Assembly: GCA_001563335.1 (NCBI GenBank)
Contig: LRSL01000049.1
Span: forward strand, 1 to 20,335
Length of the DNA stretch: 20,335 nt
Origin: Candidatus Thorarchaeota archaeon SMTZ1-45
Lineage (GTDB): Archaea; Asgardarchaeota; Thorarchaeia; Thorarchaeales; Thorarchaeaceae
Direction of reading: 5' to 3'
Shown: positions 7,271-20,335 of the stretch, one piece after another
Layout of the letters: the number at the start of each line of letters is the position of its first letter
Position numbering within the stretch: the stretch's first letter is position 1
The notes under the pieces: model-generated
Told to the model about the DNA's origin: nothing
Seen by the model: the letters and a program-made list of their open reading frames with translations, nothing else
Database searches by the model: none
Translations under genes and position numbers: made by a program

Positions 7271-8872
7271 TTGAGTAGATTGAAGAAACGCATAGTAATC
7301 TTTGAACCATCAGGTCTACGCATATCTGTTAGTCAAGAAAGTTCATTTCTTGAAGCTGTTAGGTCGGTTGGACTTCATCTGCCTTCCGATTGTGGAGGTG
7401 GAGGCACATGCGGTAAGTGCTCTATTGTTCTTCGACCTGCTCCTGAACCTACATCTATAGATGAGAAATATCTATCCTCAAACCACTTGGCACAAGGATT
7501 TCGTTTAGCATGTCAACACCGTGTAAAGTTTGATACACGAGCAGTCATACCAGAGCCCCGAAGAAAGGCCAAGATACTCATTGATGGCCTCTCTCGACTA
7601 GAATCATGGGAACCTGATTCAGGATACGAGGGGCAATTTGGAATTGCTATCGATTTGGGAACAACAACGATTGTGGCATATCTCCTTGCATTAGACTCGG
7701 GTATACAAGTAAGTCAATTAGCTTCACTGAATCCACAGGTTATCTTTGGTGAGGATGTTATTTCTAGGATAACACATGCAGTGCGAGAGGAGCATGGCAG
7801 TTCTGATTTAAAGAACAAGGTAGTAGAAGAGATTGATTCATTGATTGAGTCTCTTGTAGATGTTTCTAAAATTATCTTGGAAAGAATAAGCAGGATTAGT
7901 ATTGTTGGAAACACAGCAATGCACCACCTGTTACTAGGTGCTGATGTCAAATCGCTAGGTGTTTCACCCTATGAGCCAACAATTCGAGAATCGATTGTCA
8001 CCTCAAGTTCTGAATTGGGTCTTAATTCTAAACACAATATAGAGATTTATCTCCCGCCCAATATTGCGGGATTTGTAGGGGGAGATACTGTAGGTTTCAT
8101 TCTTTCTCAAAGGTTAGATTTGACGGAACAAATCATTGTAGGAATTGATATTGGAACAAACGGAGAGATTGTCCTATCGAATCGGGGTGATTTATCTTGT
8201 TGTTCAGCAGCAGCAGGACCAGCATTTGAAGGAGCAACAATTCGATATGGAATGAGGGGGCAGGATGGCGCTATCGAGCATGTCGCAATTGAAGATCTAG
8301 AAAAACCTCCAGAGATAACAGTGATTGGAGATGTCACACCTCGGGGTATCTGCGGTTCAGCAATCGTGGATACTGTTTCAGAAATGAGGAGAATGGGCAT
8401 CATAGATAAATCGGGCAGACTGCAGAAAATTTCGTCAAGGATATCTGAAGATGGAGATTTTGGACTAAGTTACTTACTTGTGGAGGTACCATCTAAATCA
8501 CTCAAAATATCATTCAACCAGAAAGATGTGAGACAAGTTCAGCTAGCGAAAGCTGCAATTAATTCTGGAGTAAGCCTACTTCTGCAGGAGGCTGATATCA
8601 GGGTCAAAGAAATAGATTCAGTAATGCTTGCTGGTGCATTTGGGAGTTATATCAGACCCGAGAGTGCTCTTGGAATTGGATTGTTGCCTCCAGTTGATAA
8701 AGAGCTAATTGGTCAGGTTGGTAACGCCGCTGGTGAAGGAGCCAAAGCTCTTCTATTATCCTCTCAAGCGAGGAAGATTGCTAGTGATTTAGTTTCTAAA
8801 ATCAAGTATATTGAGCTGGCGTCCCACGATGACTTCCAGTCAATATTCCTGAAATCAACATCGTTCCCATAG
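7271..8872 (+). CDS. ATP-dependent reductive activator of corrinoid proteins (RACo/DUF4445 ASKHA ATPase with N-terminal [2Fe-2S] domain)
   Basis: [2Fe-2S] motif CGGGGTCGKC...RLACQ. ASKHA motifs IAIDLGTTT, NPQVIFGEDVISRI, VGNTAMHHL, GFVGGD, IDIGTNGE, AAGPAFEG, GICGS, QKDVRQVQLAKAA, LAGAFGSY and GNAAGEGA. TTG start. Confidence 0.92.
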   Translation: MSRLKKRIVIFEPSGLRISVSQESSFLEAVRSVGLHLPSDCGGGGTCGKCSIVLRPAPEPTSIDEKYLSSNHLAQGFRLACQHRVKFDTRAVIPEPRRKAKILIDGLSRLESWEPDSGYEGQFGIAIDLGTTTIVAYLLALDSGIQVSQLASLNPQVIFGEDVISRITHAVREEHGSSDLKNKVVEEIDSLIESLVDVSKIILERISRISIVGNTAMHHLLLGADVKSLGVSPYEPTIRESIVTSSSELGLNSKHNIEIYLPPNIAGFVGGDTVGFILSQRLDLTEQIIVGIDIGTNGEIVLSNRGDLSCCSAAAGPAFEGATIRYGMRGQDGAIEHVAIEDLEKPPEITVIGDVTPRGICGSAIVDTVSEMRRMGIIDKSGRLQKISSRISEDGDFGLSYLLVEVPSKSLKISFNQKDVRQVQLAKAAINSGVSLLLQEADIRVKEIDSVMLAGAFGSYIRPESALGIGLLPPVDKELIGQVGNAAGEGAKALLLSSQARKIASDLVSKIKYIELASHDDFQSIFLKSTSFP

Positions 8873-8899: not shown

Positions 8900-9997
8900 T
8901 CATGGATTATGAATATTCCAAATTCCAAGCTCGGAAAAAACCAGGCGCTTAACTTTCTGTATGTTCATTTGAACTATATCCCATGTTTCCTTGTCATCTT
9001 CGAATGGAGGTTTCTGTTTTGGCGGTTCATACTTGTAACCAGAGAGTACAGACATAACAACTCCAATACCCCACTTGAATGATTCATTGGTATAGCCACC
9101 CCCAGCTAAGACTCCAAGCTGTCCTTGACCGAACTTATGAGCCATTCTATGAAAATAGGTTGTAATGTATCGAATCAAATCTGTGGTCAGGTTAAGATGT
9201 GCGAGACGGTCCTTATAATGAGCATCAAAACCAGGCAAGAAGATTATGAACTCTGGTTTGAAGAACTCAACCAAGGGCGGCACAATCTCATCAAAAGCAT
9301 GTCTATAAACTCCATCACAAGAGTCCATTGGAAAATGCATGTTGATATTATATCCACGACCATGGCCCTCGCCAATATCTTCGATAAAACCATCATGAGG
9401 GTACATCCATTCCGGATCCTCATGGAAGGATATTTGCATCACGTGAGGATCGTTGTAGAAATAGGTCTGGGTCCCATTCCCATGATGAACATCAAAGTCA
9501 GCAATCAAAATTCTTTGATATCCTAGATTTTTTAACTCATACGCTGCTGCCGCTACATCATTGAATATACAGAAACCACCACCCCATTCGAATTTGGCAT
9601 GATGGAAACCTCCTGTTGGTGACAGGAAATGGTCTACTTTGCCAGAAGCAACTGCGCGAGCTCCTGTGACTGTTGCACCTGAAGTTATGCTTGCATTCTC
9701 GAAGATACCAAGAAATCCAGGTGTGTCTATAGCAATCTCACCCCGACCAGTTTCAGATATTTTTCGTACAGCTTTCAGATACTCCTTTGCATGGATGGTT
9801 TCTAGAAGTTCTTTGGACAATGGTTCTGGTGTCAGAATTTCGACATTTGGTTGACTGAGAAAACCGTTTTGATCTAAAAAATCATGGACCATCTGGAACC
9901 TCCCCACCTTGATTGGGTGCTTTGTTCCAAAATCAAAGGTTTCTAGACTAGGATTCCAGAGAAAGCCAACCTTGCAAATATCTGGGGACCTCATCAT
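8900..9997 (-). CDS. Zn-dependent histone deacetylase family protein (AcuC/class I-like amidohydrolase)
   Basis: HPIKVGR, GGFHHA, GGFCIFND, DFDVHHGNGT, SFHE, G.G.G.GYNIN, PGFDAHYKD and GGGY. All catalytic and Zn-binding residues are present. Confidence 0.93.
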   Translation of the reverse strand: MMRSPDICKVGFLWNPSLETFDFGTKHPIKVGRFQMVHDFLDQNGFLSQPNVEILTPEPLSKELLETIHAKEYLKAVRKISETGRGEIAIDTPGFLGIFENASITSGATVTGARAVASGKVDHFLSPTGGFHHAKFEWGGGFCIFNDVAAAAYELKNLGYQRILIADFDVHHGNGTQTYFYNDPHVMQISFHEDPEWMYPHDGFIEDIGEGHGRGYNINMHFPMDSCDGVYRHAFDEIVPPLVEFFKPEFIIFLPGFDAHYKDRLAHLNLTTDLIRYITTYFHRMAHKFGQGQLGVLAGGGYTNESFKWGIGVVMSVLSGYKYEPPKQKPPFEDDKETWDIVQMNIQKVKRLVFSELGIWNIHNP

Positions 9998-10063
9998 TTT
10001 GCTCGAAATCTATGCACACTTATATGGCTATGCAACAAGTATCCACAAGGTGCAGGATAGAAA

Positions 10064-11503
10064 TTGAAGATTCGCTCGGTTGCAAGTGTACCTACTTCTG
10101 CGAATGTTTACTCTGTCTATGTTCGTCAGAGAAAGGATGCCAGCACTCAGATCTTTTCTCTCGATTATGGAGATCGTCTTAGAGTCTTCGATGCAAAGGG
10201 AATGCTTCGAAGTGCAAGAAAATGGAGCAGTAAGGTTAGATGTATTGCTGTTGCTGATATTGAGGGAGAGGGCAAGGACTCTCTGGTAGGGGGAGTCGGA
10301 AAAAAGATTCTAGTTGTTGACCATCGAGGAAGTCCGGTTTGGAACATCAGACTTGAGAGCAACATTGTAGCTTGTGATGCTAGAGATATAGATGGGGATG
10401 ATGCAGCTGAGGTTGTTGTAGCACTACAGAACAATCGGGTGATTCTCTATAATGATGACAAAGACACAATTTTCACAAAAACGATGAGAGACCCCGTAGC
10501 TGATGTTTGGTTGGAGGATATCACAAAGGACACAGAATTAGAAGTAGTAGTAGCAGAGATGAGTGGTCTGATTACAGTACTCACAGCAGCAGGATATCAA
10601 TTAAAGGAGCTGCAACTAGGTTCTCGTCTTTCCGTCTTTGCTGTCCTTTCATTCAGTGATAGGATTCTATTCATCACTGGTGACCAGTCACTGACACTAC
10701 GAATTTGGGACATCGATGGAAATGAGATTGCTCGACTAGATGTTGATGACACTCCTAGAGCCATGGCTACTGGAATTCCAGATGATATAGCAGATGTCGC
10801 CTTTCTTGTTGTTAGTACTAAAAACCGAAAGTTGAGTTTCTGGGAAGTTCAAGAATCAGGAAAGGTAACAAGAACTGAGAAAGTAATACTTCAACAGATT
10901 GGTTCCACAAAGACTGTGCTCTATAGAAGAGCTATTAAGTGTGGTAACTGTGGAGCTCCAACCTCCCCCGAAGCGTCAACCTGCTCATCCTGTGGAGCTC
11001 AATTGGAGATGATTGAGGAATATGTAATCGAGGAATACATTCAGGAAAGCATTGACTCGATAACATCAAAACACAACAGGATTAAGCTCAAGGAGTTAGA
11101 TCGAATTCTGCGAAGAACACTGCCCAGGCCAGCTGCATATAACTTACGTCGTAGTCTTCAAGCAATGATTCAGAGTGATGTAATAGATGGGCACATTGAT
11201 GGAAACACATTCGTAAGAACAGAGGATAAGAAGAAGATTCCATCACCTTCAAGAGAAAACATCCAAAGGGTGAAAGGCACTCTTAGAGAACTACTTCGTG
11301 GTACCGATACTCTAAGCGTACGAAGTCTTGAAAAAGAAACAGGAGTCAATCGAAGAATTCTAAGAAGGACACTTATAATTCTCCTCGGTGAGGGCACAAT
11401 TCAGGGCTCATTGTCAGGGGATGATTTCATACTCCAAAAGAATCAGGACATTAATGATTTCGAGAAGAAGCTAGTAGATGAGCTATCTACTTGGAGTAAT
11501 TAG
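10064..11503 (+). CDS. Cytoplasmic multidomain protein: FG-GAP/WD40-like beta-propeller, C4 zinc ribbon, tandem winged-helix (PCI-like) domains
   Basis: Repeats VADIEGEGKDSLV, ARDIDGDDAAEVVV and LEDITKDTELEVVV; a WD-like blade ITGDQSLTLRIWD; zinc ribbon CGNCGAP-x7-CSSCG at 10940-10993; winged-helix-like ends MIQSDVIDGHIDGNTF and LLGEGTIQGSLSGDDF. No signal peptide. TTG start. Confidence 0.7.
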   Translation: MKIRSVASVPTSANVYSVYVRQRKDASTQIFSLDYGDRLRVFDAKGMLRSARKWSSKVRCIAVADIEGEGKDSLVGGVGKKILVVDHRGSPVWNIRLESNIVACDARDIDGDDAAEVVVALQNNRVILYNDDKDTIFTKTMRDPVADVWLEDITKDTELEVVVAEMSGLITVLTAAGYQLKELQLGSRLSVFAVLSFSDRILFITGDQSLTLRIWDIDGNEIARLDVDDTPRAMATGIPDDIADVAFLVVSTKNRKLSFWEVQESGKVTRTEKVILQQIGSTKTVLYRRAIKCGNCGAPTSPEASTCSSCGAQLEMIEEYVIEEYIQESIDSITSKHNRIKLKELDRILRRTLPRPAAYNLRRSLQAMIQSDVIDGHIDGNTFVRTEDKKKIPSPSRENIQRVKGTLRELLRGTDTLSVRSLEKETGVNRRILRRTLIILLGEGTIQGSLSGDDFILQKNQDINDFEKKLVDELSTWSN

Positions 11504-11562
11504 AGAGGATTGGAGATTGTGTTCATGAACAGTAAATCATTCAAAAACGAGGTAAAGGATCC

Positions 11563-14436
11563 ATGAATATCTCAAAACGAATAGTAGTCACATTTGTCAC
11601 TGTCGCGTTGATCCCAATTTTGGTAATTTCTTCATTATCGATTCTCGCGATAAATAATGTATCAAATGCGAATGCTGCTGATGCTGCAGCAGAACTTGAA
11701 GCTGAAGAGCTTGCTAATCTGATGAGGCTCGCTAATGATACAGGTCTCTTCATCGAAGAGAGATGGAAAAACTATGTAGATGGTGTCTACATGATGGAGG
11801 CTTATTGTGAAGACCTGTTCAATGAACGGATAAATGCTACACCACGATATAGCTATTACTGGGATCAGGCGGAGGAGCCTAACTGGGGAGATTTGACCTT
11901 TGAAACGGATCAAGATATTGTCGAAGCATATTTTTCGGAGTTCATCACGTTTGAAACTGATTGTTACTATATGCCTCGGTTTGCTTGGAATAATAACGAC
12001 CCACATGATTTGTCTCCTGGAACACAGTATGCTCTTGATGTTACATCCAACATGGTCAATATCTTCAGAGCCCTTCATGAAATGAATGAAGATTACAGAT
12101 GGTTATACATGGGGTTTGATCTGGGAATCTCAGACCAACATCTATTCAGAAATTACCCGTTTGACAATCTCTCTTATTTCCAACAGGATGATGAAGGTAA
12201 TCTACTACCACCCGAAGATGATTATGATCCCAACGCAGAAGATTGGTATACAAATGTAGTTGCGCAAGATCCGGGGGATGACAGCATTGTTTTCACTGAG
12301 CCATACATTGATCCTTCAGTCGGACTTGTAATATCAATGGGAAGACCGGTTAGGTTTGACGATGAAACATTGATTGGAGTAGTATCTGCAGATGTTACAA
12401 TGGCTACGATTAATGAAAAGGTCCTGAATCTTGAAGTCCTAGATAATGGATATGCGTATCTTCTTGATAGAAACGGTGTTGTTGTCGCTCATCCTGATCT
12501 TGGCGTATTTGATGACCCGCTCCCCATAGAGAATATTGAATTTGGTTCTTCAACTAGTAGTGAAGCAATTGCATTTGGAAATCTGCTCAGCTCCTCAGTG
12601 TTGGTAGATGCATCCGGGCTAGAAGAGTTTCAGAAAGATGGACAAAGGTGGCATATGGCATTCGTCAATGTCACCAACACAGACTATGTCTTGGCAATTG
12701 TAGTTCCTAATTCAGATGTGATTGGTCCAGCTATTGCAATGCTCAACCTTGTGGGAACGCAGACAGTCATTCTCACCATAGCTTTGGGAGCTGTCTTAGC
12801 CATCGTAGCAGGTGTTGTCACAGCTGTCTCATATCGTCGAGCTCACTCAGTCATTGAACCAATCACTGAAATGACTCGTCTTGTGAACAAGATGGCTGGA
12901 CAAGATTTCACTCGAGGAATAACTACAGCTGGTGCAATGTATGAGGAGGTTGGAACAACAGTTGATGCACTCCTTAGTTTCCAAGAAGCTGCAAGGTTCG
13001 GAAATCAAGCCTTTATTCGGGGAGATCTCAACAGGGCATTGGCTAACTATCAGAACCTTTTGGAAATAAGTCGAAGACTTCAGATTGATGTTGGGAGACA
13101 AACCATGCTTCTAAACATTGGTAATGTCTTCAGACAACGTGGCGATACAGGAAATGCAATGGACTATTATGAACAATCTATGGTCATAGCAAAGAACCTA
13201 CTTGAAAAAGCAAAGGAAGAAGGAGCTGATGAGAAAGATGCACTTGTTAGAATTGCATCGCTCTATCATAACATGGCTTTGGTTGAGATGGATCGAGGGC
13301 ATTCAGAAAAATCGATGGCTCTCTTGGAAGATGCAGAAGCAATTGATCGGACTCTGAAGAATCAATATGGATTAGCAAAACGCTTTGACGCTATGGGACT
13401 CGTCATGATGCGAGATGGTCGATATAGTCAAGCTCAATCGCGTTTCGATGAAGCTAAGGAAATTGCTCAATCTATAGACTATCTTAGGAGTATGGCATAT
13501 ATCAACTACCATGAAGGGGAACTTTACCAAGTCCAAGGAAAATGGAAGAAAGCTGAGGATTCATACAACGAGGCAATCTCATTTGGTAATCAGACAGATG
13601 AGCTTTGGCTTGTCGTATTTGCGATGCAACGATTAGCAGATGTACTTGATCAACAGAATAAACCTAGTCATGATGTTCGAAGGAAAGCCGAGAATCTCAG
13701 GCGTTCTATTATGTTCAAGAAGAGCGTTACATTCGTTATTGATTACTCAGGAAGTATGCAGGCTCAGAACAGAATAAGAGCAGCAGTTAATGGAGCTTTA
13801 GAGATTCTCCACAGTCAAGTCAACCCGCAAGATGCTGTATCTGTTATTGTCTTTAACTCATCCTATCGAGAACTTCTTCCTCTAACCTTGAAGGGAGAAC
13901 GCGATGATGACGAGAACCAAATTGTTAGAACTCTGAAATCGTTAAAGTATCCAAACTATGCTACAGCATTCTATGATGCTCTTGGAAGGGCATTGGAGGA
14001 ACTTGAGAAAATAGAGTCAAGTGAACATAGATGGGTAATAGCGCTCACGGATGGACAAGATAATAGCTCCAAGATTTATGCCTTAGACGTTCTTGAGGGC
14101 ATCCTAACAGAAAGCGATCGAACGAAGAGAAAGAAACCACTCACCATCGAGGGTTTCATTCGAGACCATCATTTAGATGTAAATCTAATAATCATTGGAG
14201 TAGGACAAGAACTGAGAGACCGGGCTGATACTGATAGAAGAATAATTTCAAAGAAAACTGGGCAAAATATTACGACTGAGGAATTACTGGAATCAATATG
14301 TGAGAGAGTTCCACAGGGACAATATTTCTCTGTAGTGGACAGCATGAACGTGCGATTAGATATCGAGAGAGCATTTGAAAAAGTGGGAGTCTTGATGGCA
14401 CAGATGGAAGTTGGAGGGACTACTACGGATTACTGA
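11563..14436 (+). CDS. Membrane receptor: TM-dCache_1-TM-HAMP-TPR repeats-vWA (intact MIDAS)
   Basis: TM1 IVVTFVTVALIPILVISSLSILAI; dCache motifs YDPNAEDWY, FTEPYID, GVVSADV and GYAYLLDRNGVVVAHP; TM2 VILTIALGAVLAIVAGVVTAV; HAMP IEPITEM...EEVG; TPRs (LNIGNVFRQRGDTGNAMDYYEQS, YHNMALV, YHEGELYQVQGKWKKA); vWA FVIDYSGSM...TAFYDAL...LTDGQDN. A GAGGT RBS lies at 11549-11553. Confidence 0.88.
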   Translation: MNISKRIVVTFVTVALIPILVISSLSILAINNVSNANAADAAAELEAEELANLMRLANDTGLFIEERWKNYVDGVYMMEAYCEDLFNERINATPRYSYYWDQAEEPNWGDLTFETDQDIVEAYFSEFITFETDCYYMPRFAWNNNDPHDLSPGTQYALDVTSNMVNIFRALHEMNEDYRWLYMGFDLGISDQHLFRNYPFDNLSYFQQDDEGNLLPPEDDYDPNAEDWYTNVVAQDPGDDSIVFTEPYIDPSVGLVISMGRPVRFDDETLIGVVSADVTMATINEKVLNLEVLDNGYAYLLDRNGVVVAHPDLGVFDDPLPIENIEFGSSTSSEAIAFGNLLSSSVLVDASGLEEFQKDGQRWHMAFVNVTNTDYVLAIVVPNSDVIGPAIAMLNLVGTQTVILTIALGAVLAIVAGVVTAVSYRRAHSVIEPITEMTRLVNKMAGQDFTRGITTAGAMYEEVGTTVDALLSFQEAARFGNQAFIRGDLNRALANYQNLLEISRRLQIDVGRQTMLLNIGNVFRQRGDTGNAMDYYEQSMVIAKNLLEKAKEEGADEKDALVRIASLYHNMALVEMDRGHSEKSMALLEDAEAIDRTLKNQYGLAKRFDAMGLVMMRDGRYSQAQSRFDEAKEIAQSIDYLRSMAYINYHEGELYQVQGKWKKAEDSYNEAISFGNQTDELWLVVFAMQRLADVLDQQNKPSHDVRRKAENLRRSIMFKKSVTFVIDYSGSMQAQNRIRAAVNGALEILHSQVNPQDAVSVIVFNSSYRELLPLTLKGERDDDENQIVRTLKSLKYPNYATAFYDALGRALEELEKIESSEHRWVIALTDGQDNSSKIYALDVLEGILTESDRTKRKKPLTIEGFIRDHHLDVNLIIIGVGQELRDRADTDRRIISKKTGQNITTEELLESICERVPQGQYFSVVDSMNVRLDIERAFEKVGVLMAQMEVGGTTTDY

Positions 14437-14437
14437 T

Positions 14438-14445
14438 GGAGGTGA
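14438..14445 (+). promoter_or_regulatory. Strong archaeal Shine-Dalgarno GGAGGTGA coupling the two dCache genes
   Basis: It lies between the TGA stop (14434-14436) of the receptor gene and ATG 14447, which supports 14447 rather than TTG 14411 as the start. Confidence 0.65.
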
Positions 14446-14446
14446 A

Positions 14447-15925
14447 ATGAAGTTGGTACAATCAGCAACACAAACAAAAAAGAAAGGAAGTTTTCGTACA
14501 AATGTTATTCTTACCTTCCTAGTAATCTCTCTTGTTTCCCTAGCAGCCACTGGAGTGGTTTCACTGACCTTTGTAGATTTGATAGGTAACTCGACGAGGA
14601 ACCAGAGTTCCACAGCACTGGAGAGTCAGATCCAAATCAACATGGATGAAACCGCACAGAAAACAGCTCTTGTAATAAATCAGAAACTAACTAGTGCAGA
14701 AGGCATGATTGCAGCTGCTGCAGAAGAGCTTGAGGCACTATTTGATGCTACTTCGACATATGAATATCGAGAAGTGTATTATGACCTCTTGTTCGAGGAT
14801 GACACAGTTTCTCCTGCTCCAGCAGACAATCATTATGACCCCAATTATGGGCTCAATGTTTCTTGGGATTATAGTAGCTGGTATATCGCTGGAACAGATT
14901 CTACAAACTACAATTCTAGCTATGCAGATCTTCCAGCAAATGCTGACAAGCTTGGACGTGTATCAAATATGGACTACATCTTCAAAGCTATTCACGATCG
15001 ATTAGCTTTCAGGTGGCTCTATATTGCATTTGCAGATGATGGATTGTTCATTAACTATCCCGGGAGTATATTGGGTCCATTATCAGATGTAGCCAGACTG
15101 GCGGATCCCTACGACCCAAGAGGCGAGTATTGGTACCAGACAATATGGGCGGGCAATGGTGACATGGTGTTCGTCGAGCCTTACTATGATGAGTTTGACA
15201 ATGTTCTTCTGATTTCCATCGGAAAAGTGGTGTATAGGAATAGTATCCCGTTTGCTGTGATTTCCGGAGACATCACGATAGAGGACATCAGGGAGAAAAT
15301 CATCAACGTTGAGATTCTGGAGAGCGGGTATGCATTTCTGGTGGATTCATACGGAGGAGTAGTTGCTCACCCAGAGGTTGCTGATGAGGACTATCTGGAG
15401 GGACTACCACCGCTTACTACTGTGGAAATCAACCCAGGTGGCTCACCCGCCTTGACACAGGCGAATATCGATCAGATAACCAATGTTGTCCCAGGAGCCT
15501 CAGGCACTCTTCGGTATACCAAAGCAGGAGCTGAGCACATTCTTGTCTTTACGCAGGTTGGTAAAGGAGACTACATATGTGTAATCTCTGTCCCTCTGGC
15601 TGAGGTCTTAGAGAGTATCCCTCTGCTTGAAGAACGAATCGCTGCACAGAACGCTTCCGCAGCTCAATATATCATCTTAGTCACAGCGGCGGGAATACTC
15701 ATCGCAGGAATTGTAGCAGTTGCCATTTCGAATACTATTACGAAACCATTGCAATACCTCATGAACCTTGCAGAGAGAAATGCTGCAGCAAGGATAATGG
15801 ATAAACCTCTCGACACTGGAGACCTTCAAGTAGATGCAGCATACATAGCTCAAGACGATGAAATTGGTGAGCTTGCTCGGGCATTCCAAGGAATGCTTGA
15901 CTCAATTCGCGAAGACGAAGAATAG
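14447..15925 (+). CDS. Membrane sensor protein: TM-dCache_1-TM-HAMP with no output domain (paralog of the upstream receptor's sensory half)
   Basis: TM1 VILTFLVISLVSLAATGVVSLTFV; dCache RWLYIAF..DGLFINYPG, YDPRGEYWY, FVEPYYD, VISGDI and GYAFLVDSYGGVVAHP; TM2 YIILVTAAGILIAGIVAVAI; HAMP TKPLQYL...DDEIGELARAFQGM, then stop after REDEE. The ORF track gives TTG 14411; ATG 14447 is preferred. Confidence 0.85.
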   Translation: MKLVQSATQTKKKGSFRTNVILTFLVISLVSLAATGVVSLTFVDLIGNSTRNQSSTALESQIQINMDETAQKTALVINQKLTSAEGMIAAAAEELEALFDATSTYEYREVYYDLLFEDDTVSPAPADNHYDPNYGLNVSWDYSSWYIAGTDSTNYNSSYADLPANADKLGRVSNMDYIFKAIHDRLAFRWLYIAFADDGLFINYPGSILGPLSDVARLADPYDPRGEYWYQTIWAGNGDMVFVEPYYDEFDNVLLISIGKVVYRNSIPFAVISGDITIEDIREKIINVEILESGYAFLVDSYGGVVAHPEVADEDYLEGLPPLTTVEINPGGSPALTQANIDQITNVVPGASGTLRYTKAGAEHILVFTQVGKGDYICVISVPLAEVLESIPLLEERIAAQNASAAQYIILVTAAGILIAGIVAVAISNTITKPLQYLMNLAERNAAARIMDKPLDTGDLQVDAAYIAQDDEIGELARAFQGMLDSIREDEE

Positions 15926-15953
15926 TTGTGCCCATCAAGAAATCAGAGCATAG

Positions 15954-17804
15954 GTGAAGACATTGGCAGAAGAAACTTGGTCATTAGATAAATCAAGACA
16001 AGTCTATGGCGTGAATCGGAATGATCTCCACTTTCTGGATATATCAGAGGAGGGGGATCTGTTTCTGCGTCTTCGTGGCAAATCTATCACTTTCAAGGAT
16101 ATTATTGAAAGAATCAAGAACATAAATGGCGACTCTCCAGGATATGCATCATCTTTTACTTTGAGGGTACCTCAACTTGTGACATATCAGGTAAAGAAAT
16201 TGAAAGCTGCATTCCAAAGAGTAATGGAAGAGCTTGATTATGGTGGAAAGTTCATAGGAATTTATCCAGTGAAGGTAAATCAGCGAAAAGATTGTGTCAC
16301 CGCTGTCCTTCGCTCCGATTCCGATTATGGGTTAGAGGCTGGTACAAAAGCAGAGCTTCTACTGATCAAAAATGTAATCGAGCGTGAAAAACATAGGCCA
16401 ATAGTTTGTAATGGAGCAAAGGATCCAAAATATTTGAAGTTGATTAAGGAATGTATGAAGGAGGGTTATAACATTGCAATTTCAGTTGAATCTGTTCATG
16501 AATCTCGTTTAATTATGAAGAGATTCAAACCTGAGCAGACTCATCTTGTATTGCGAATTAAACCCTATCTCAGTGTAGAAGGACACTGGTCCCATTCCAC
16601 CGGAAGAGACTCAAAATTTGGCCTTAGCATTCATGACCTCTATGATGTTGTTGAACTTCTAAAACAGAGAGGCTTTGCAAACTCAGTTAAAACAATTCTT
16701 GCACATGCAGGCTCACAGATAACTGAGATTGAGTCCTTTGAGAGATTCGGCAGACTCCTAACAAAGCTATATACAGAACTAAGAGATATGGGATTATCAA
16801 ATCTCGTGAACATAGACTTTGGAGGTGGGCTGGCAATTGACTACACAAGTTCTGAAACGTCAGATTTCATGCTTCGCTATGCACAATTGCTAGTTTCAGG
16901 TGTGAAGGCGCATTTATCTGAAATATCTGGCAAGCATCCCCCACCAAACATAATGATTGAGTCAGGTCGAGGCATAACCGCACTCTCAACAATGGTAGTT
17001 GTTGAGGCTCTAGAGGTACGGTCAATATTTCCACCTCGTGATGAGAATGCCATATCTGAGATCATTAAGGATGATGAGAGGAAGACACTTGACAGAATCA
17101 GGAAAGCCTCAACTCTTAAGGAGATAAGGGAGATTTGGAACAATTTTCAAGAGAAGTACGGTGGTTTGAATCTGGCAGGGATGAAATTCATCCTTGAACA
17201 AGAAATGGTGACAAGGATTCTCGAGGATGCTGTAAGAGCAAGACTTGTAGAATTAAGTCTGAAATCCTATGATATAGATGGATTGGTCAGAAGCTTTTGG
17301 CGTCCTGAACATATTGTAATTGGAAACTTTAGTGTCTTCAATAGTATTGCTGACCATGTCTTAGTGAAACAGCACTTTCCAGTCATTCCAATTCAGGAAC
17401 TCAATTTGAAACCTCAGACCACAGTACGTCTGGTGGATATTACATGCGACTCTGATGGTGAGATAGCACAGTTCTATAGACCTAGGACAGACTCGATATG
17501 GTTTGCAAAAGATAATAGACTCTTGACATCCCTAGAAGGGAGAATGGGTGAAGGTATACCTGTAGGCAGTCTAGAGAAAATTCCAGGTTCTTGCTTTGTA
17601 CTTACACTAGCAGGTGCATACCAAGATGCAATCGAGATGGATCATAATCTACTTGGAGACCTACCGGATGTTGAGTTATATCTCCAGGATGATGGAAAAT
17701 GGGCACTATCTTGGGTAACGGGCGCTGAGTCAATTGAGGAACTACTAAAAGATGTTGGCTATGCGGATATCGATGTAGATGAAGATCCATATATGTGGGA
17801 TTAA
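15954..17804 (+). CDS. speA: Biosynthetic PLP-dependent arginine decarboxylase (fold type III, bacterial/plant type)
   Basis: YPVKVNQ (PLP lysine), GLEAGTKAEL, CNGAKD, GRDSKFGL, HAGSQI, DFGGGL, ESGRGI, NFSVFNSIAD, DITCDSDG, GAYQD and HNLLG. GTG start after a 28-nt gap. Confidence 0.9.
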   Translation: MKTLAEETWSLDKSRQVYGVNRNDLHFLDISEEGDLFLRLRGKSITFKDIIERIKNINGDSPGYASSFTLRVPQLVTYQVKKLKAAFQRVMEELDYGGKFIGIYPVKVNQRKDCVTAVLRSDSDYGLEAGTKAELLLIKNVIEREKHRPIVCNGAKDPKYLKLIKECMKEGYNIAISVESVHESRLIMKRFKPEQTHLVLRIKPYLSVEGHWSHSTGRDSKFGLSIHDLYDVVELLKQRGFANSVKTILAHAGSQITEIESFERFGRLLTKLYTELRDMGLSNLVNIDFGGGLAIDYTSSETSDFMLRYAQLLVSGVKAHLSEISGKHPPPNIMIESGRGITALSTMVVVEALEVRSIFPPRDENAISEIIKDDERKTLDRIRKASTLKEIREIWNNFQEKYGGLNLAGMKFILEQEMVTRILEDAVRARLVELSLKSYDIDGLVRSFWRPEHIVIGNFSVFNSIADHVLVKQHFPVIPIQELNLKPQTTVRLVDITCDSDGEIAQFYRPRTDSIWFAKDNRLLTSLEGRMGEGIPVGSLEKIPGSCFVLTLAGAYQDAIEMDHNLLGDLPDVELYLQDDGKWALSWVTGAESIEELLKDVGYADIDVDEDPYMWD

Positions 17805-17807
17805 ATG

Positions 17808-18989
17808 CTAATTAATACAGATCAGTTCTTCTTGGGGTTTTGATAGGAACTCACATCCCTGCCGTGTAATTAGAATGTCCTCCTCGAGGCTAACCTGTCC
17901 ATAGTGTTCAGTCGTTACATAAAACTCCAGTGTGAAAACATTTCCCACTTCTACAACACCCATGGGACTCTCTCCATAACGCTCCCACTTTGGACCGAGT
18001 AGAGTGCCACCATCATGGGCGAGGCGTCCAAGTTGGTGACCCAACGCATGTTGATATTCTTCGTATCCTGCAGCTTTCACGAAATCACGAGCAATATTGT
18101 CGACCTCATAACCCACAGCCCCTGGCCTAATCCATTTTGCTGCAGCTTGAATGCCATCTCTCACTGTTTCAAATGCATCCTGCACCTCGGAAGGAATATC
18201 CTTCGTGTCACCAAAGAAGAACATTCGTTGAATGTCTGAACAGTATCCTTTGTACTTTACACCAAAATCGAAATGGAGAAGGTGACCATTCTTGGTCTTG
18301 TTGTCTGTTGGACCTGTATGTCCGAATTGCTTGTATGGACCCGCATCAACTGCCGGACAGTGATCTACATCCCAAGCACTAATGACTTTAAGGTCATTCA
18401 TACATCTATGGAAGAAGTCGTAGATTTCAATCTCAGTTTGTCCTACCTTAACGAATTTCGTTGCTCGTTCAAAGATGTCCTCAGTGATTTTGACAGCCTT
18501 CCGTATTCTTGAAACCTCCTCAGCAGTCTTTCTACCGCGGAGTTTTTGTATGTGGTTTTCTGCGGACATGAGTCGGTTGAGATAGGGTGTGTTCTTGAGG
18601 TAGTCCTGAAGCAGCATGTGCATCCCAACACTGAGCCCATCTGCAGCAACATCATTCATGCTATAATTGATTGCAATCTTCTTGGGGTCTTTTCTTGTTA
18701 GTTGCTTCACAAGTTCTTCTCTGATGCTTGCAGTATAGGGAATTATTGTATCGTATATCCCCTTACTCTCTACGCCATCTTTGTCAAAGTTACCAACAAT
18801 AGCTATCTTCTCATCCTCAGTAAATATGAGTGCAGATTGCCAAGTCAGATCTCCACCTAGTATGAGTTCAAGAACTGGGTCCGCCATTTGAGAGGTTTCT
18901 CGTACCCATACAAACCAAGCATCTATATCCTGTTCTTTGAGTATCTTGCATGCCTGCTCTGCTTTGGATTTCTCTATCGTAAAAGACAT
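17808..18989 (-). CDS. Xaa-Pro aminopeptidase/prolidase family (M24B) metallopeptidase
   Basis: LRGRKTAEE, HFDFGVKYKGYCSDIQR, HALGHQLGRLAHD, VFTLE and SLEEDILIT supply the D, D, H, E, E metal ligands. ATG 18989 sits 1 nt after the ADH stop with a GGTGA RBS; the ORF track start is 19001. Confidence 0.9.
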   Translation of the reverse strand: MSFTIEKSKAEQACKILKEQDIDAWFVWVRETSQMADPVLELILGGDLTWQSALIFTEDEKIAIVGNFDKDGVESKGIYDTIIPYTASIREELVKQLTRKDPKKIAINYSMNDVAADGLSVGMHMLLQDYLKNTPYLNRLMSAENHIQKLRGRKTAEEVSRIRKAVKITEDIFERATKFVKVGQTEIEIYDFFHRCMNDLKVISAWDVDHCPAVDAGPYKQFGHTGPTDNKTKNGHLLHFDFGVKYKGYCSDIQRMFFFGDTKDIPSEVQDAFETVRDGIQAAAKWIRPGAVGYEVDNIARDFVKAAGYEEYQHALGHQLGRLAHDGGTLLGPKWERYGESPMGVVEVGNVFTLEFYVTTEHYGQVSLEEDILITRQGCEFLSKPQEELICIN

Positions 18990-18990
18990 C

Positions 18991-20109
18991 TCAATCACCA
19001 TGGGGTTGTATGACAGCCTTCAGGGACATCTGTTTCTCTTGTGTTTCTAATGCTTTCTGAGCATCATCAAGAGAGAATTTGTGTGTGACTAGTTCTTCGA
19101 ATGGAAACCTGTCATAGTTATCAGCTACAGTCGTTATTCCCCTGTATACGTGGAGGGTCTTGGACCCCCATACTGTCTTTATGTCTAGATGTTTCTTGTT
19201 CATCAAGTGCGTATTGATTTCTGTGGTTCCGTGGTCTGTGTATTGACCACAGATTGTGTAACTTCCACCTTCTCTGACTAGCTCTATACCTTCAGGGATA
19301 GCATGAGGATTACCAGTTGCTTCATACACAATGTCTGGACCATGACTACCAGAGATCTCTCTGAGTTTGTCTTTTCGCTCCTGAAGCGTTGTTTCTTCTA
19401 TGTTGATAATGTCTGTTACCCCAAACTTTTTTGCAATATCAAGACGGTTCTTTGCCTTGTCCAATACAGTCACAGTTGAGGCGCCACTGACACTAGTAAG
19501 GACTGCAATCATGAGACCAACTGGTCCAGCTCCTTGAATAGCCACATTTAGACCCCATGTCATGGGACTCCTAAGAACTGTATGAACAGCAGTGGGCATG
19601 GCGCATCCGACAGCGCTAGCCCCATTAAAGCTCACATGATCAGGCAGTCTAATGATATGAGTGCCTGGAGACAGGTAAAGGTATTCACTATAACCTCCTA
19701 TCAGACGAGGAAACTTGGTCGAGTCCATAGTGATTCCATAGACCTTACGGTTCGGACATTTTGTAGGAGCATCTGCAATCAGGCAGAAATAGCAAGAGAA
19801 ACACGTCTGTGTGACATCATGAAAGCCAACACGATCCCCCTCCTTGATTTCATTGCCATCAAGATCCTTGATTGGTTTTGGTCCAATAGATTCAATTATA
19901 CCAACCACTTCATGACCAAGAATCAAAGGGTATGGAACTCCTGCAAGCTTCCCATGCCATAGATGAACATCAGTTCCACAGACACCAGCGTTAGCTACCT
20001 TCATTAATGCTGCACCAGGTTGCAGCTCAGGAATTTTATATTCCTCAATAATCAAGTCATCACTTGGTTTTGGTACAACAGCAGCTCGACTTTTCGTTGG
20101 CACCTGCAT
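18991..20109 (-). CDS. Zn-dependent medium-chain alcohol dehydrogenase (5-exo-hydroxycamphor-dehydrogenase-like MDR)
   Basis: GVCGTDVH, LGHEVVG, structural Zn site CFSCYFC-x7-C, Rossmann QGAGPVG and EATG. The start at ATG 20109 (MQVPTKSRAAVV) fits the MDR N-terminus and promoter spacing. Confidence 0.9.
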   Translation of the reverse strand: MQVPTKSRAAVVPKPSDDLIIEEYKIPELQPGAALMKVANAGVCGTDVHLWHGKLAGVPYPLILGHEVVGIIESIGPKPIKDLDGNEIKEGDRVGFHDVTQTCFSCYFCLIADAPTKCPNRKVYGITMDSTKFPRLIGGYSEYLYLSPGTHIIRLPDHVSFNGASAVGCAMPTAVHTVLRSPMTWGLNVAIQGAGPVGLMIAVLTSVSGASTVTVLDKAKNRLDIAKKFGVTDIINIEETTLQERKDKLREISGSHGPDIVYEATGNPHAIPEGIELVREGGSYTICGQYTDHGTTEINTHLMNKKHLDIKTVWGSKTLHVYRGITTVADNYDRFPFEELVTHKFSLDDAQKALETQEKQMSLKAVIQPHGD

Positions 20110-20134
20110 GCTGGAGAATAGAAACACACCATGA

Positions 20135-20140
20135 TTTAAA
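20135..20140 (-). promoter_or_regulatory. TATA box for a probably leaderless adh-peptidase transcript
   Basis: TTTAAA lies 26-31 nt upstream of ATG 20109, the typical archaeal leaderless spacing. Confidence 0.5.
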
Positions 20141-20153
20141 GAAAGAGGAAAGG

Positions 20154-20335
20154 ATGGATAAATGGAGGAATCTCCCCAAATATGCACTGGAGAGACGAGC
20201 TGACATTTTCTTTGGCGTTTATCTAAAAACAGTATTGGAGGCTAAGTATGATATTAAAATCAAAGAGGAGATAATTCCGGAGTTCCCTGTACGTAAAGCC
20301 ACGATTTATCCTAATGTTCAGACCAATCAGTCATT
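20154..20335 (+). CDS. 5' part of a gene running off the window; conserved hypothetical protein, possibly PD-(D/E)XK nuclease-like
   Basis: Not in the ORF track. Manual translation gives MDKWRNLPKYALERRADIFFGVYLKTVLEAKYDIKIKEEIIPEFPVRKATIYPNVQTNQS..., open to the edge, with GAGGA upstream. 'WR.LP.Y.LERRADIFF...IPEFP' recalls a conserved hypothetical family. Confidence 0.65.
   Translation, partial: MDKWRNLPKYALERRADIFFGVYLKTVLEAKYDIKIKEEIIPEFPVRKATIYPNVQTNQS

Follow-up and report, generated by a model that had tools for sequence, protein, structure and literature searches.

Four co-directional genes that encode a putative transmembrane receptor, its candidate adaptor and an arginine decarboxylase occupy positions 10064-17804 of contig LRSL01000049.1 from the Asgard archaeon Candidatus Thorarchaeota archaeon SMTZ1-45 (assembly GCA_001563335.1). 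The window that we analysed is this entire contig of 20,335 bp (G000:C49 in our genome set), and the genome to which it belongs is 87.7% complete, a figure that applies to every genome-wide absence reported below.

A four-gene receptor locus without signalling enzymes

The first gene, g1 (10064-11503, +), starts with TTG, stops with TAG at 11501-11503 and encodes a soluble protein of 479 aa. It is followed by g2 (11563-14436, +; ATG start, TGA stop at 14434-14436), which encodes a 957-aa membrane receptor with the order TM1-dCache_1-TM2-HAMP-TPR-linker-vWA, where TM denotes a transmembrane segment, TPR tetratricopeptide repeats and vWA a von Willebrand factor A domain with a metal ion-dependent adhesion site (MIDAS). 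The third gene, g3 (14447-15925, +; ATG start), encodes a 492-aa paralogue of the N-terminal half of g2 (TM1-dCache_1-TM2-HAMP) that lacks an output domain, and g4, or speA (15954-17804, +; GTG start), encodes a 616-aa probable biosynthetic arginine decarboxylase of the SpeA type, dependent on pyridoxal phosphate (PLP). The intergenic gaps are 59, 10 and 28 nt, and a Shine-Dalgarno-like site, GGAGGTGA (14438-14445, +), read directly from the sequence, lies in the 10-nt gap one base ahead of the g3 ATG. Two of the start codons allow more than one reading: the mechanically called open reading frame (ORF) of g3 begins at TTG 14411 and would overlap g2, the ATG at 14447 being the best reading, and the orthologues of g4 align from residue 4, which makes TTG 15963 a possible start and would widen the g3-g4 gap to 37 nt.

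Re-reading of the coordinates agreed with a first-pass annotation of this DNA, which had described four co-directional genes with these gaps and an internal ribosome-binding site, and the domain searches bore out its assertion that none of the four products is a signalling enzyme. Pfam and NCBIfam searches (E<=0.01) detected no kinase, cyclase, phosphatase, MCPsignal (the signalling domain of methyl-accepting chemotaxis proteins, MCPs) or receiver domain in g1-g4, nor the HisKA plus HATPase_c or receiver domains by which two-component systems are recognised; NCBIfam kinase models matched only the TM-HAMP part, far under cut-off. The cytoplasmic outputs comprise only interaction modules, also as the first-pass annotation had stated. 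A scan of 9900-18000 for sigma-70 promoters and intrinsic terminators, which is not built for archaea, found 15 and 4 sites, respectively, against 17.7 and 4.6 expected from shuffled sequences. A query for RNA sequencing runs covering 10064-17804 listed none. We rejected an anti-phage defence role: PADLOC gave only generic TPR models on g2 (3.6e-10, 1.3e-7) and no matches for g1, g3 or g4.

The receptor pair is ancient and inherited jointly

Conservation across the phylum demonstrates that this module is a deeply conserved, enzyme-free receptor unit of Asgard archaea, beyond chance juxtaposition. Its core is the g2-g3 pair, to which speA and the propeller gene g1 are frequent, separable accessories. 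Among 400 genomes of the phylum, homologues of g2 (E<=1e-20) were found in 128, distributed over ten families (designated here by f-numbers, with f1 the family of SMTZ1-45 itself). A g3-type gene directly follows g2, in the same orientation, in all 59 loci where the contig reaches beyond the 3' end of g2, 19 from a set of 20 and 40 from the other sets; of the 60 g2 loci taken, one (L056) ends inside g2 and two (L062, L063) carry short forms described below.

The sensor of g2 (11653-12747, +), predicted to be extracellular, scores 61.2 bits against dCache_1 (PF02743), well over the curated cut-off of 45 bits, and was delimited by phmmer alignment to PctA (5ltx), PctB (5lt9) and 6iop at E 1e-10 to 1e-12; the flanking transmembrane stretches, at approximately residues 6-30 and 399-424, were read by eye. 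For g3, the dCache_1 score is 36.1 bits in the hmmscan of the protein versus 45.1 bits, over the cut-off, in a six-frame search of the genome. Its HAMP domain (15725-15913), where the chain ends, scores 31.3 bits in the protein and 34.4 bits in the genome search, with the family (PF00672) recognised by more than 25 bits together with a Pro in helix 1 and a Glu in helix 2. The Pfam HAMP model has no match in g2 at E<=0.01; nevertheless, residues 430-478 (12850-12996, +) are homologous to HAMP, aligning to the HAMP domain of the short-form homologue L062:6863-8590 (Pfam HAMP 1.4e-7, 32.2 bits), with P433 and E462 invariant in 43 sequences. Thus, of the dCache-HAMP-TPR-vWA order originally assigned to g2, the dCache, TPR and vWA parts were recovered, whereas the Pfam HAMP match belongs to g3 and g2 carries only this homologous segment. 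In the whole genome, g2 and g3 are the sole dCache_1 matches and g3 is the sole Pfam HAMP match. The name 'McpC' given to one orthologue in the public record is unsupported, given that MCPsignal (PF00015) is absent from g2, g3 and the genome.

The two receptors are paralogues, with 31% identity between g3 and residues 6-442 of g2. When the sensor regions of 27 g2 and 25 g3 proteins were placed in a quick maximum-likelihood tree, the two sets fell on opposite sides of one branch (SH-aLRT 99), and each side repeats the same family structure as a mirror image of the other, which points to one old duplication followed by joint inheritance. In the short forms, the dCache domain is gone from both partners in parallel while TM1-TM2-HAMP is kept, the 150-aa mini-g3 aligning to g3 residues 1-56 and 399-495 (E 3e-20). 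The pair also occurs as single chains of approximately 1520-1650 aa, 7 among the 150 cluster representatives listed, and the four chains scanned with Pfam read dCache ... dCache-TPR-VWA; the N-terminal TM2-HAMP of one of the seven (P0251, from EukProt) aligns to the TM2-HAMP of g3 in BLASTP. No fused forms of 1676-4785 aa were found at E<=1e-5. Taken together, the adjacency, the mirrored trees, the parallel loss of dCache and the single-chain fusions make a heteromer joined through the transmembrane and HAMP segments the most economical reading, so that the g2-g3 receptor is, judging from these sequence comparisons, very probably heteromeric, in line with the initial proposal.

The co-receptor g3 had been described as output-less, which is accurate for the protein encoded here, ending as it does at HAMP, but not for the family as a whole. 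In f12, the g3 orthologue (L050:293-2287, -; also G143 and G144) is a protein of 585-670 aa with a zinc ribbon and HEAT repeats beyond HAMP, a non-enzymatic interaction module.

The single-chain forms, with the order dCache ... dCache-HAMP-TPR-VWA, are P0201, P0251, P0213, P0225, P0233, P0241 and P0242; two come from EukProt, one of them named Mallomonas annulata, and the second dCache domain of P0251 retains the Arg of the amino-acid motif discussed below. If truly eukaryotic (contamination is possible), the EukProt chains do not fit the rule, stated in the accessible portion of PMC8915833, that all eukaryotic dCache_1 proteins have a VWA domain inserted into dCache.

Linkage to speA, the only probable arginine decarboxylase gene detected

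The four-gene order extends well beyond the genus. All four genes are colinear in 17 of the 19 loci from the same genus, the other 2 being cut by contig ends, and in all 18 loci that belong to the family but lie outside the genus. Four f1 loci (L065, L066, L067, L078; ~40% identity) retain the four colinear genes with none of the window's flanking genes in the stretch taken. Outside f1, the arrangement changes: f18 has all four genes, with speA divergent from g2 and, past g3, a convergent propeller gene; f20 and f14 have g2-g3-speA in colinear order; f5 has a divergent adjacent speA, and in f12 speA lies 6 kb away; f26, f9 and f27 have g2-g3-propeller without speA; and a second copy in G100 consists of the pair alone. 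The four genes thus occur together in two families, f1 and f18, in differing orientations. Accordingly, of the conserved four-gene unit that the first-pass annotation had envisaged, the synteny in relatives, on which that proposal hinged, holds in the own-family loci and f18, but a universal four-gene order does not exist. When the ORFs of 29 diverse loci from 11 lineage groups were clustered, only the Cache, SpeA and propeller families appeared in more than two groups. Across the 400 genomes, 93 have both g2 and speA, 35 have only g2, 15 only speA and 257 neither.

The probable identity of g4 as an arginine decarboxylase comes from profile and structure-database searches. It matches Pfam Orn_Arg_deC_N (PF02784) with 83.6 bits (cut-off 23.4) and the solved arginine decarboxylases 3nzp (6.6e-58), 3n2o (5.4e-53, over residues 5-610) and 3nzq (2.1e-49), scoring under the equivalog cut-offs of NCBIfam PRK05354 (349.3 versus 369 bits) and TIGR01273 (338.2 versus 624.1). 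Its PLP-Lys, HxGSQ, GGG, ESGR and CDS segments, which we take to be the catalytic motifs of these enzymes, all match the Campylobacter jejuni enzyme. This is the only PF02784 (fold-III decarboxylase) match in the genome, in which PdaD, the pyruvoyl-dependent enzyme, has 0 matches. The same exclusion runs through the phylum: SpeA is present in 108 of the 400 genomes (f1 75/85, f20 11/12, f14 6/12, f12 6/19, f18 4/22, f5 4/31, f19 1/2, none in f9, f26 or f27) and PdaD in 204 (f1 0/85, f18 0/22, f20 0/12, f12 0/19, f9 118/135, f26 14/14). The two enzymes are nearly complementary across families, with SpeA replacing PdaD in lineages such as f1. Agmatine and polyamine supply is needed for tRNA-Ile2 modification and the hypusine pathway; an agmatinase-family gene and a TiaS gene lie on other contigs of this genome, and TiaS uses agmatine to modify tRNA-Ile2, so that agmatine would be consumed inside the cell. 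As the only arginine decarboxylase detected, replacing PdaD in a genome with TiaS, SpeA is best regarded as a housekeeping enzyme, which makes feedback on the agmatine or polyamine supply likelier than a synthase-plus-receptor signal between cells.

Several side observations concern speA. The single PF02784 match also means that no LysA-type diaminopimelate decarboxylase was detected in the 87.7%-complete assembly. In f20, a second fold-III PLP decarboxylase of 460-480 aa follows speA (L051:13193-14575, +, and the same position in L052-L054), followed by a ~120-aa ORF without a family match and then a methyltransferase gene, perhaps an extended amine-biosynthesis operon. G338 and G341 carry a sequence-divergent speA, with 32-35% identity, directly beside the deacetylase gene described below, in the same neighbourhood but without g1-g3 (L089, L090). 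Receptor-linked SpeA proteins end in an acidic D(E/D)DPY[MF] tail (17760-17804; SpeA of L025-L083), which is absent from f18 SpeA and from several unlinked paralogues and present in some unlinked ones (L085, L086, L091). We considered this tail as a receptor-specific docking peptide, with TPR or MIDAS as candidate binding sites, and rejected it because it occurs in unlinked paralogues as well.

Ligand pockets with a possible preference for cationic amines

The best solved relatives of the g2 sensor, and likewise of the g3 sensor, are the chemoreceptors PctA, PctB, PctC, 6iop and 3c8c, with weaker matches to CACHD1 and alpha2delta-1. The amino-acid-binding class to which PctA belongs, dCache_1AA, is marked by Y121, R126, W128, Y129, Y144 and D173 (PctA numbering), with R126 binding the ligand carboxylate, according to the available text of PMC10589655 and PMC8915833. 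The equivalent positions are Y221, E226, W228, Y229, Y248 and D277 in g2 and, from the PctA/PctB alignment, Y222, E227, W229, Y230, Y246 and D275 in g3. Both proteins therefore retain five of the six positions, including those that grip the ligand's amino group and those lining the pocket, and fall outside dCache_1AA in that the carboxylate-binding Arg is replaced by Glu. The replacement in both partners makes a cationic amine without a carboxylate the likeliest ligand, and the alignments support the view that both pockets are altered in the direction expected for such a compound. The precedent comes from the dCache receptors McpU and TlpQ, which bind agmatine at 0.48 uM and 150 nM, respectively, in a negatively charged pocket (PMC6234866, in the part available).

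The substitution tracks speA in one direction. Arg at the R126 position was seen in 3 of 58 g2 and 2 of 54 g3 sequences, all five from loci without speA (f26 loci L058 and L059; the second copy in G100, L077), and in speA-linked pairs the position is taken by E, Q, D or N or, as seen in f20 and f12, by an aromatic residue, but never by Arg.

This pattern bears directly on the possibility that the pair senses amino acids or another nutrient and that the proximity of speA reflects shared inheritance or transfer as a block rather than a functional tie. Such a reading is in keeping with the amino-acid chemoreceptors (PctA, PctB, PctC) and chemoreceptors 6iop and 3c8c as closest solved relatives, with the full amino-acid motif in f26 and the second copy of G100, neither of which has speA nearby, with the lack of speA in 35 of the 128 g2-positive genomes and with the synteny, within the genus, of the whole neighbourhood, unrelated genes included. 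It does not sit well with the recurrence of speA next to the pair in f1, f14, f18, f20 and f5 (and 6 kb off in f12), whether colinear or divergent, with its retention in L065, L066, L067 and L078, where none of the flanking genes is seen in the stretch taken, with the absence of the carboxylate-binding Arg from every speA-linked pair or with the presence of g2 in 93 of the 108 speA-positive genomes. We regard a nutrient sensor unconnected with SpeA as unlikely.

The same pockets have to be weighed in relation to the suggestion, made in the first-pass annotation, that SpeA produces a secreted agmatine signal that the receptor detects, that is, cell-cell communication by a synthase and its cognate receptor. 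The conserved adjacency of the two genes, a pocket that would fit a cationic amine and the tight agmatine binding by known dCache domains (again from the available part of PMC6234866) are compatible with this scheme. It is weakened by the housekeeping features of SpeA, the only arginine decarboxylase detected in a family where PdaD was found in 0 of 85 genomes, and by the agmatinase-family and TiaS genes elsewhere in the genome; moreover, ORF clustering of the loci revealed no exporter gene in the conserved set, and the pair exists in lineages without speA. Cell-cell signalling is thus weakly supported, and we consider it highly improbable.

The cytoplasmic arm and its predicted propeller partner

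Only g2 extends beyond HAMP into the cytoplasm. Residues 479-695 (12997-13647, +) form a TPR region matched by Pfam TPR_12, TPR_2 and TPR_MalT and, in the PDB, by consensus TPR proteins and LGN/Pins; a linker of residues 696-714 (13648-13704, +), containing His703, leads to a C-terminal vWA domain (13720-14367, +; VWA_2 54.8 bits, VWA 42.1 bits) predicted to be cytoplasmic. The metal-coordinating pattern of a MIDAS is DxSxS ... T ... D, and in g2 it is complete (D727, S729, S731, T801, D830), with all five residues invariant in 43 sequences spanning 24-88% identity. The last dozen residues of g2 (14395-14436) are acidic and conserved in all families as AQxEVGGxTxDY (EVEGF in distant ones), a candidate for self-binding at the MIDAS site. 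We rejected kinship with the Bat (BatA-E) vWA/TPR operon: TPR_BatC_Lepto scored 25.2 bits against a cut-off of 175, and no BatA or BatB model matched.

Profile searches of g1 yielded only weak beta-propeller matches and a zinc ribbon in Pfam and NCBIfam, and no hydrophobic stretch was apparent at the N-terminus on reading the sequence. The AlphaFold model (pLDDT 86.8, pTM 0.83) predicts a six-bladed beta-propeller (residues 1-263, 24 strands), a helix (270-288), a zinc ribbon (C293, C296, C307, C310), two winged helices (322-385 and 397-457) and a C-terminal helix. The four Cys of the CxxC...CxxC pattern are invariant in 24 sequences. Whole-fold searches returned generic propellers only; the best VIA match of the propeller is the NHL propeller of TRIM2 (Z 24.9, root-mean-square deviation 2.6, 235 aligned residues). 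We make no claim of kinship with the BBSome, as Foldseek places BBS2, BBS9, BBS1 and ITFG2 near the top without setting them apart from WD40 and NHL propellers (E 4e-14 versus 3e-12). The first winged helix has an invariant basic helix, and the C-terminal part as a whole finds its best matches among scaffold-type proteins (UFL1/DDRGK1, ESCRT-II, kleisin partners, cullin, PCI): the best Foldseek E is 1.5e-3, with no match at E<=1e-3, the best VIA hit is the winged helix of Stn1 at Z 8.1, tied with many others, and Pfam gives PCI at 0.012 and GntR at 0.013, both under cut-off. The winged helix invoked by the first-pass annotation is therefore present, in two copies in the model, but the output role attributed to it is ambiguous in view of these generic, scaffold-type matches.

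The pair has a propeller gene as a neighbour in f1, f18, f26, f9, the f9 short form and f27, and modelling suggests how the two products may meet. Complex prediction for g2 residues 478-957 with g1 residues 1-290 gave 0.61 (individual runs 0.61, 0.00 and 0.65), as opposed to 0.00 for the best of 3 controls, with contact agreement among runs of at least 0% and a partner pLDDT of at least 74; among solved complexes 58 of 80 attain this mark, as against 2 of 110 mismatched pairs, counts that are approximate because custom alignments were used. In the predicted interface, the top face of the propeller is spanned by the g2 linker (696-714). As an independent check, the 43-sequence alignment was read at His703: all 34 g2 sequences from propeller loci, which represent six lineages, carry this residue, against 0 of 9 from the five lineages whose loci lack a propeller gene. 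Its predicted contact in g1, Y16, does not vary among 29 propellers with identities as low as 17%. We thus treat the docking of g1 on the TPR-vWA linker as predicted, with support from the co-variation of His703, and the proposed propeller adaptor emerges as a credible docking partner, the complex model having passed its controls.

The gene directly upstream of g2, which is g1 in f1, differs between lineages (L051:6624-7067, +; L057:2441-2716, -; L042:11159-11506, -). In f20, it encodes an AbrB/MazE-domain protein of 121-147 aa (PF04014, 2.4e-9), and in f14 a RING-finger protein of 91-115 aa (zf-RING_2, 4.3e-7 and 6e-5). These are possible alternative adaptors in lineages without g1.

The prevalence of interaction modules raises the alternative of a membrane-anchored assembly platform, in which the TPR-vWA arm and the propeller would hold SpeA or other clients at the membrane, for instance next to a transporter, with dCache tuning the assembly or being vestigial. 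All cytoplasmic parts are of scaffold type, including the winged helices of g1 by their best matches; the short forms keep the g2-like, mini-g3 and propeller genes after losing dCache; the invariant MIDAS implies a conserved protein ligand; and linked SpeA proteins share the acidic tail described above. That tail, however, also occurs in some unlinked paralogues, and both receptor partners keep HAMP, a signal-relay module, with P433 and E462 invariant in g2. Furthermore, the conservation of the pocket residues and their co-variation between the two partners, which have either both Arg or both a non-basic residue, argue for a working ligand site. Overall, a pure platform appears rather unlikely.

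Alternatively, the HAMP pair or the TPR-vWA arm could control a kinase, phosphatase or second-messenger enzyme encoded elsewhere, feeding a conventional pathway. Elsewhere in the genome, which is incomplete, 7 receiver-domain matches lie on other contigs, and both TPR and vWA domains can recruit enzymes; yet no gene for such an enzyme recurs beside the pair in any of the 11 lineage groups (ORFs of 29 loci), and MCPsignal has 0 matches in the genome. This option seems to us very unlikely.

Proposed function of the g2-g3 receptor module

The reading that we favour, and hold to have about an even chance of being correct, is that of an amine receptor formed by g2 and g3, with recruitment as its output and docking of g1, tied to the supply of agmatine and polyamines. 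The two proteins would form a heteromeric transmembrane receptor joined through their transmembrane helices and HAMP domains, and the presumed ligand is a cationic amine that has no carboxylate, for example agmatine, putrescine or another polyamine of this kind. The cytoplasmic arm would be contributed by g2 alone, in the form of the TPR, the linker helix and a vWA domain whose metal site is intact, and the signal would be conveyed by a change in the protein partners of this arm rather than by catalysis. The top face of the g1 propeller is predicted to dock on the linker around His703, as the co-variation of this residue also suggests, while the zinc ribbon and the two winged helices of g1 could offer a further surface for binding nucleic acid or protein. 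The role of such a system may be to adjust the synthesis of agmatine and polyamines to what is available outside the cell, by way of operon expression or by acting directly on SpeA, and the four-gene set probably links extracellular amines to the agmatine and polyamine supply. This reading builds on points that the analysis shows: the gene set is present and conserved, the two receptors are paralogues inherited together, the MIDAS is intact, the pocket is altered, and SpeA and PdaD are complementary.

Several findings weigh against this interpretation. With regard to the ligand, the f9 and f27 pairs, which lack speA, are also acidic at the R126 position, so that acidic pockets occur outside the speA-linked pairs as well and the association of Arg with the absence of speA holds one way only; several speA-linked g2 proteins (f20, f12) have Gln or an aromatic residue rather than Glu there. 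The amine-binding motif dCache_1AM (Cerna-Vargas et al. 2023) includes an inserted stretch that places a conserved Arg-Asp pair over the pocket and, in the part of the paper available, is reported in one archaeal phylum only, Halobacteriota (PMC10589655). The link to SpeA is loosened by the 35 of 128 g2-positive genomes without speA (families f9, f26 and f27), and lineages with speA but without g1 (f20, f14, f5) need another output route. As for g1, one of the three complex runs scored 0.00, with contact agreement of at least 0%, and the model is a prediction only; related sequences are not independent, so the real His703 contrast is 6 versus 5 lineages; in 3 of the 9 loci counted as lacking a propeller (L049, L050, L084), the contig ends near the pair and the gene could lie beyond; and the C-terminal matches of g1 are ambiguous, being generic or scaffold-type and not clearly those of DNA-binding regulators. 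Finally, the 7 receiver domains of the genome allow for a kinase encoded elsewhere.

If the favoured reading is correct, the ectodomains should bind agmatine or diamines, a Glu-to-Arg reversion should move the specificity towards amino acids, which are also the expected ligands of the f26 orthologues, and H703A in g2 or Y16A in g1 should break the docking. It provides a testable hypothesis on the control of agmatine and polyamine supply in archaea. A bolder generalisation, which we judge unlikely in its full form, is an Asgard-wide adaptor-based system in which an obligate heterodimeric dCache receptor with a pure recruitment output (TPR, linker and MIDAS vWA) captures or releases a propeller-winged-helix adaptor and serves as the sensor of an agmatine/polyamine homeostat in the speA lineages, the protist single chains being relatives of an unnoticed class of eukaryotic receptors distinct from alpha2delta/CACHD1.

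Relationship to known receptors

Receptors of the dCache-HAMP type are the commonest extracellular sensors of prokaryotes. In archaea, according to the accessible part of a 2018 census, Cache domains had been seen almost exclusively in Methanomicrobia (PMC5847659). All dCache_1 receptor classes described in the literature examined, part of it in excerpt, feed an enzyme or a chemotaxis kinase. A conserved family with protein docking as its sole output would, if confirmed, represent a different logic, nearer to the receptor-adaptor signalling of eukaryotes, and the module occurs in the archaeal group nearest to eukaryotes. We found no description of this architecture or operon in the literature, although the supplementary datasets of motif papers may list such proteins.

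The best solved relatives, PctA, PctB and PctC, along with 6iop and 3c8c (dCache_1AA; E 1e-10 to 1e-12), share the TM1-dCache-TM2-HAMP topology. They differ in having the MCP signalling domain as output, where g2 has TPR-vWA and g3 nothing, in forming homodimers rather than what appears to be a fixed pair of paralogues and in the Arg at position 126, which is Glu here. McpU of Pseudomonas putida and TlpQ of P. aeruginosa, known as polyamine and histamine chemoreceptors, are dCache_1 receptors for agmatine, putrescine, cadaverine and spermidine in which an Asp/Tyr cluster holds the primary amine and an additional Glu contributes (PMC6234866, as far as its available text goes). We propose the same logic for E226/E227 together with D277/D275, the equivalence of the Glu being a lead only, as McpU and TlpQ were not among the phmmer matches; both are MCPs that feed CheA, unlike g2 and g3. 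MCPs in general likewise have no enzymatic domain of their own, their interaction module changing its hold on the adaptors CheW and CheA. Here, however, MCPsignal is missing from the proteins and the entire genome, and the candidate adaptor is a propeller-zinc ribbon-winged helix protein with no kinase known downstream.

Among animal proteins, alpha2delta and CACHD1 likewise carry a MIDAS vWA together with a dCache_1 domain that stems from the lineage of amino-acid sensors. The sensors of g2 and g3 are matched by CACHD1 (8s7c) at 6.1e-8 and 1.3e-5, respectively, and alpha2delta-1 matches that of g3 at ~5e-3. Their vWA domain is extracellular and inserted in dCache, according to the text available from PMC8915833, whereas that of g2 is C-terminal, beyond TM2, HAMP and TPR, and by this topology cytoplasmic; the VWA_N domain has no match in g1-g4 at E<=0.01. 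The integrin head likewise pairs a propeller, in its alpha subunit, with a vWA-like I domain, in its beta subunit, and g1 homologues give weak FG-GAP/Itfg2-type Pfam matches. We rejected an integrin-type pair: the g1 model has six blades (best matches six-bladed NHL) rather than the seven of an FG-GAP propeller, whose top face contacts the vWA-like domain, the predicted contact at g2 696-714 lies outside the vWA, and both parts are cytoplasmic.

Genes flanking the module

Upstream, an HDAC-family deacetylase gene (8900-9997, -; best PDB matches HDAC6, HDAH and AcuC) is divergent from g1 across a 66-nt spacer. We considered it as a polyamine deacetylase belonging to the module and rejected this idea: the likeness to HDAC6, HDAH and AcuC is only general, and the gene, common in the family, is absent from the stretch taken at L065, L066, L067 and L078. 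Next to it, at 7271-8872 (+), lies a gene whose product, with Fer2 and the middle and C-terminal domains of RACo, is a corrinoid activation protein of the RACo type (371 bits with the AcsV model, under cut-off); it hints at corrinoid-dependent methyl transfer or Wood-Ljungdahl chemistry nearby. Downstream, an M24 peptidase gene (17808-19001, -) and a zinc alcohol dehydrogenase gene (18991-20187, -), which overlap by 11 nt, converge on speA with 3 nt between the stop codons, and this flank is syntenic within the family.

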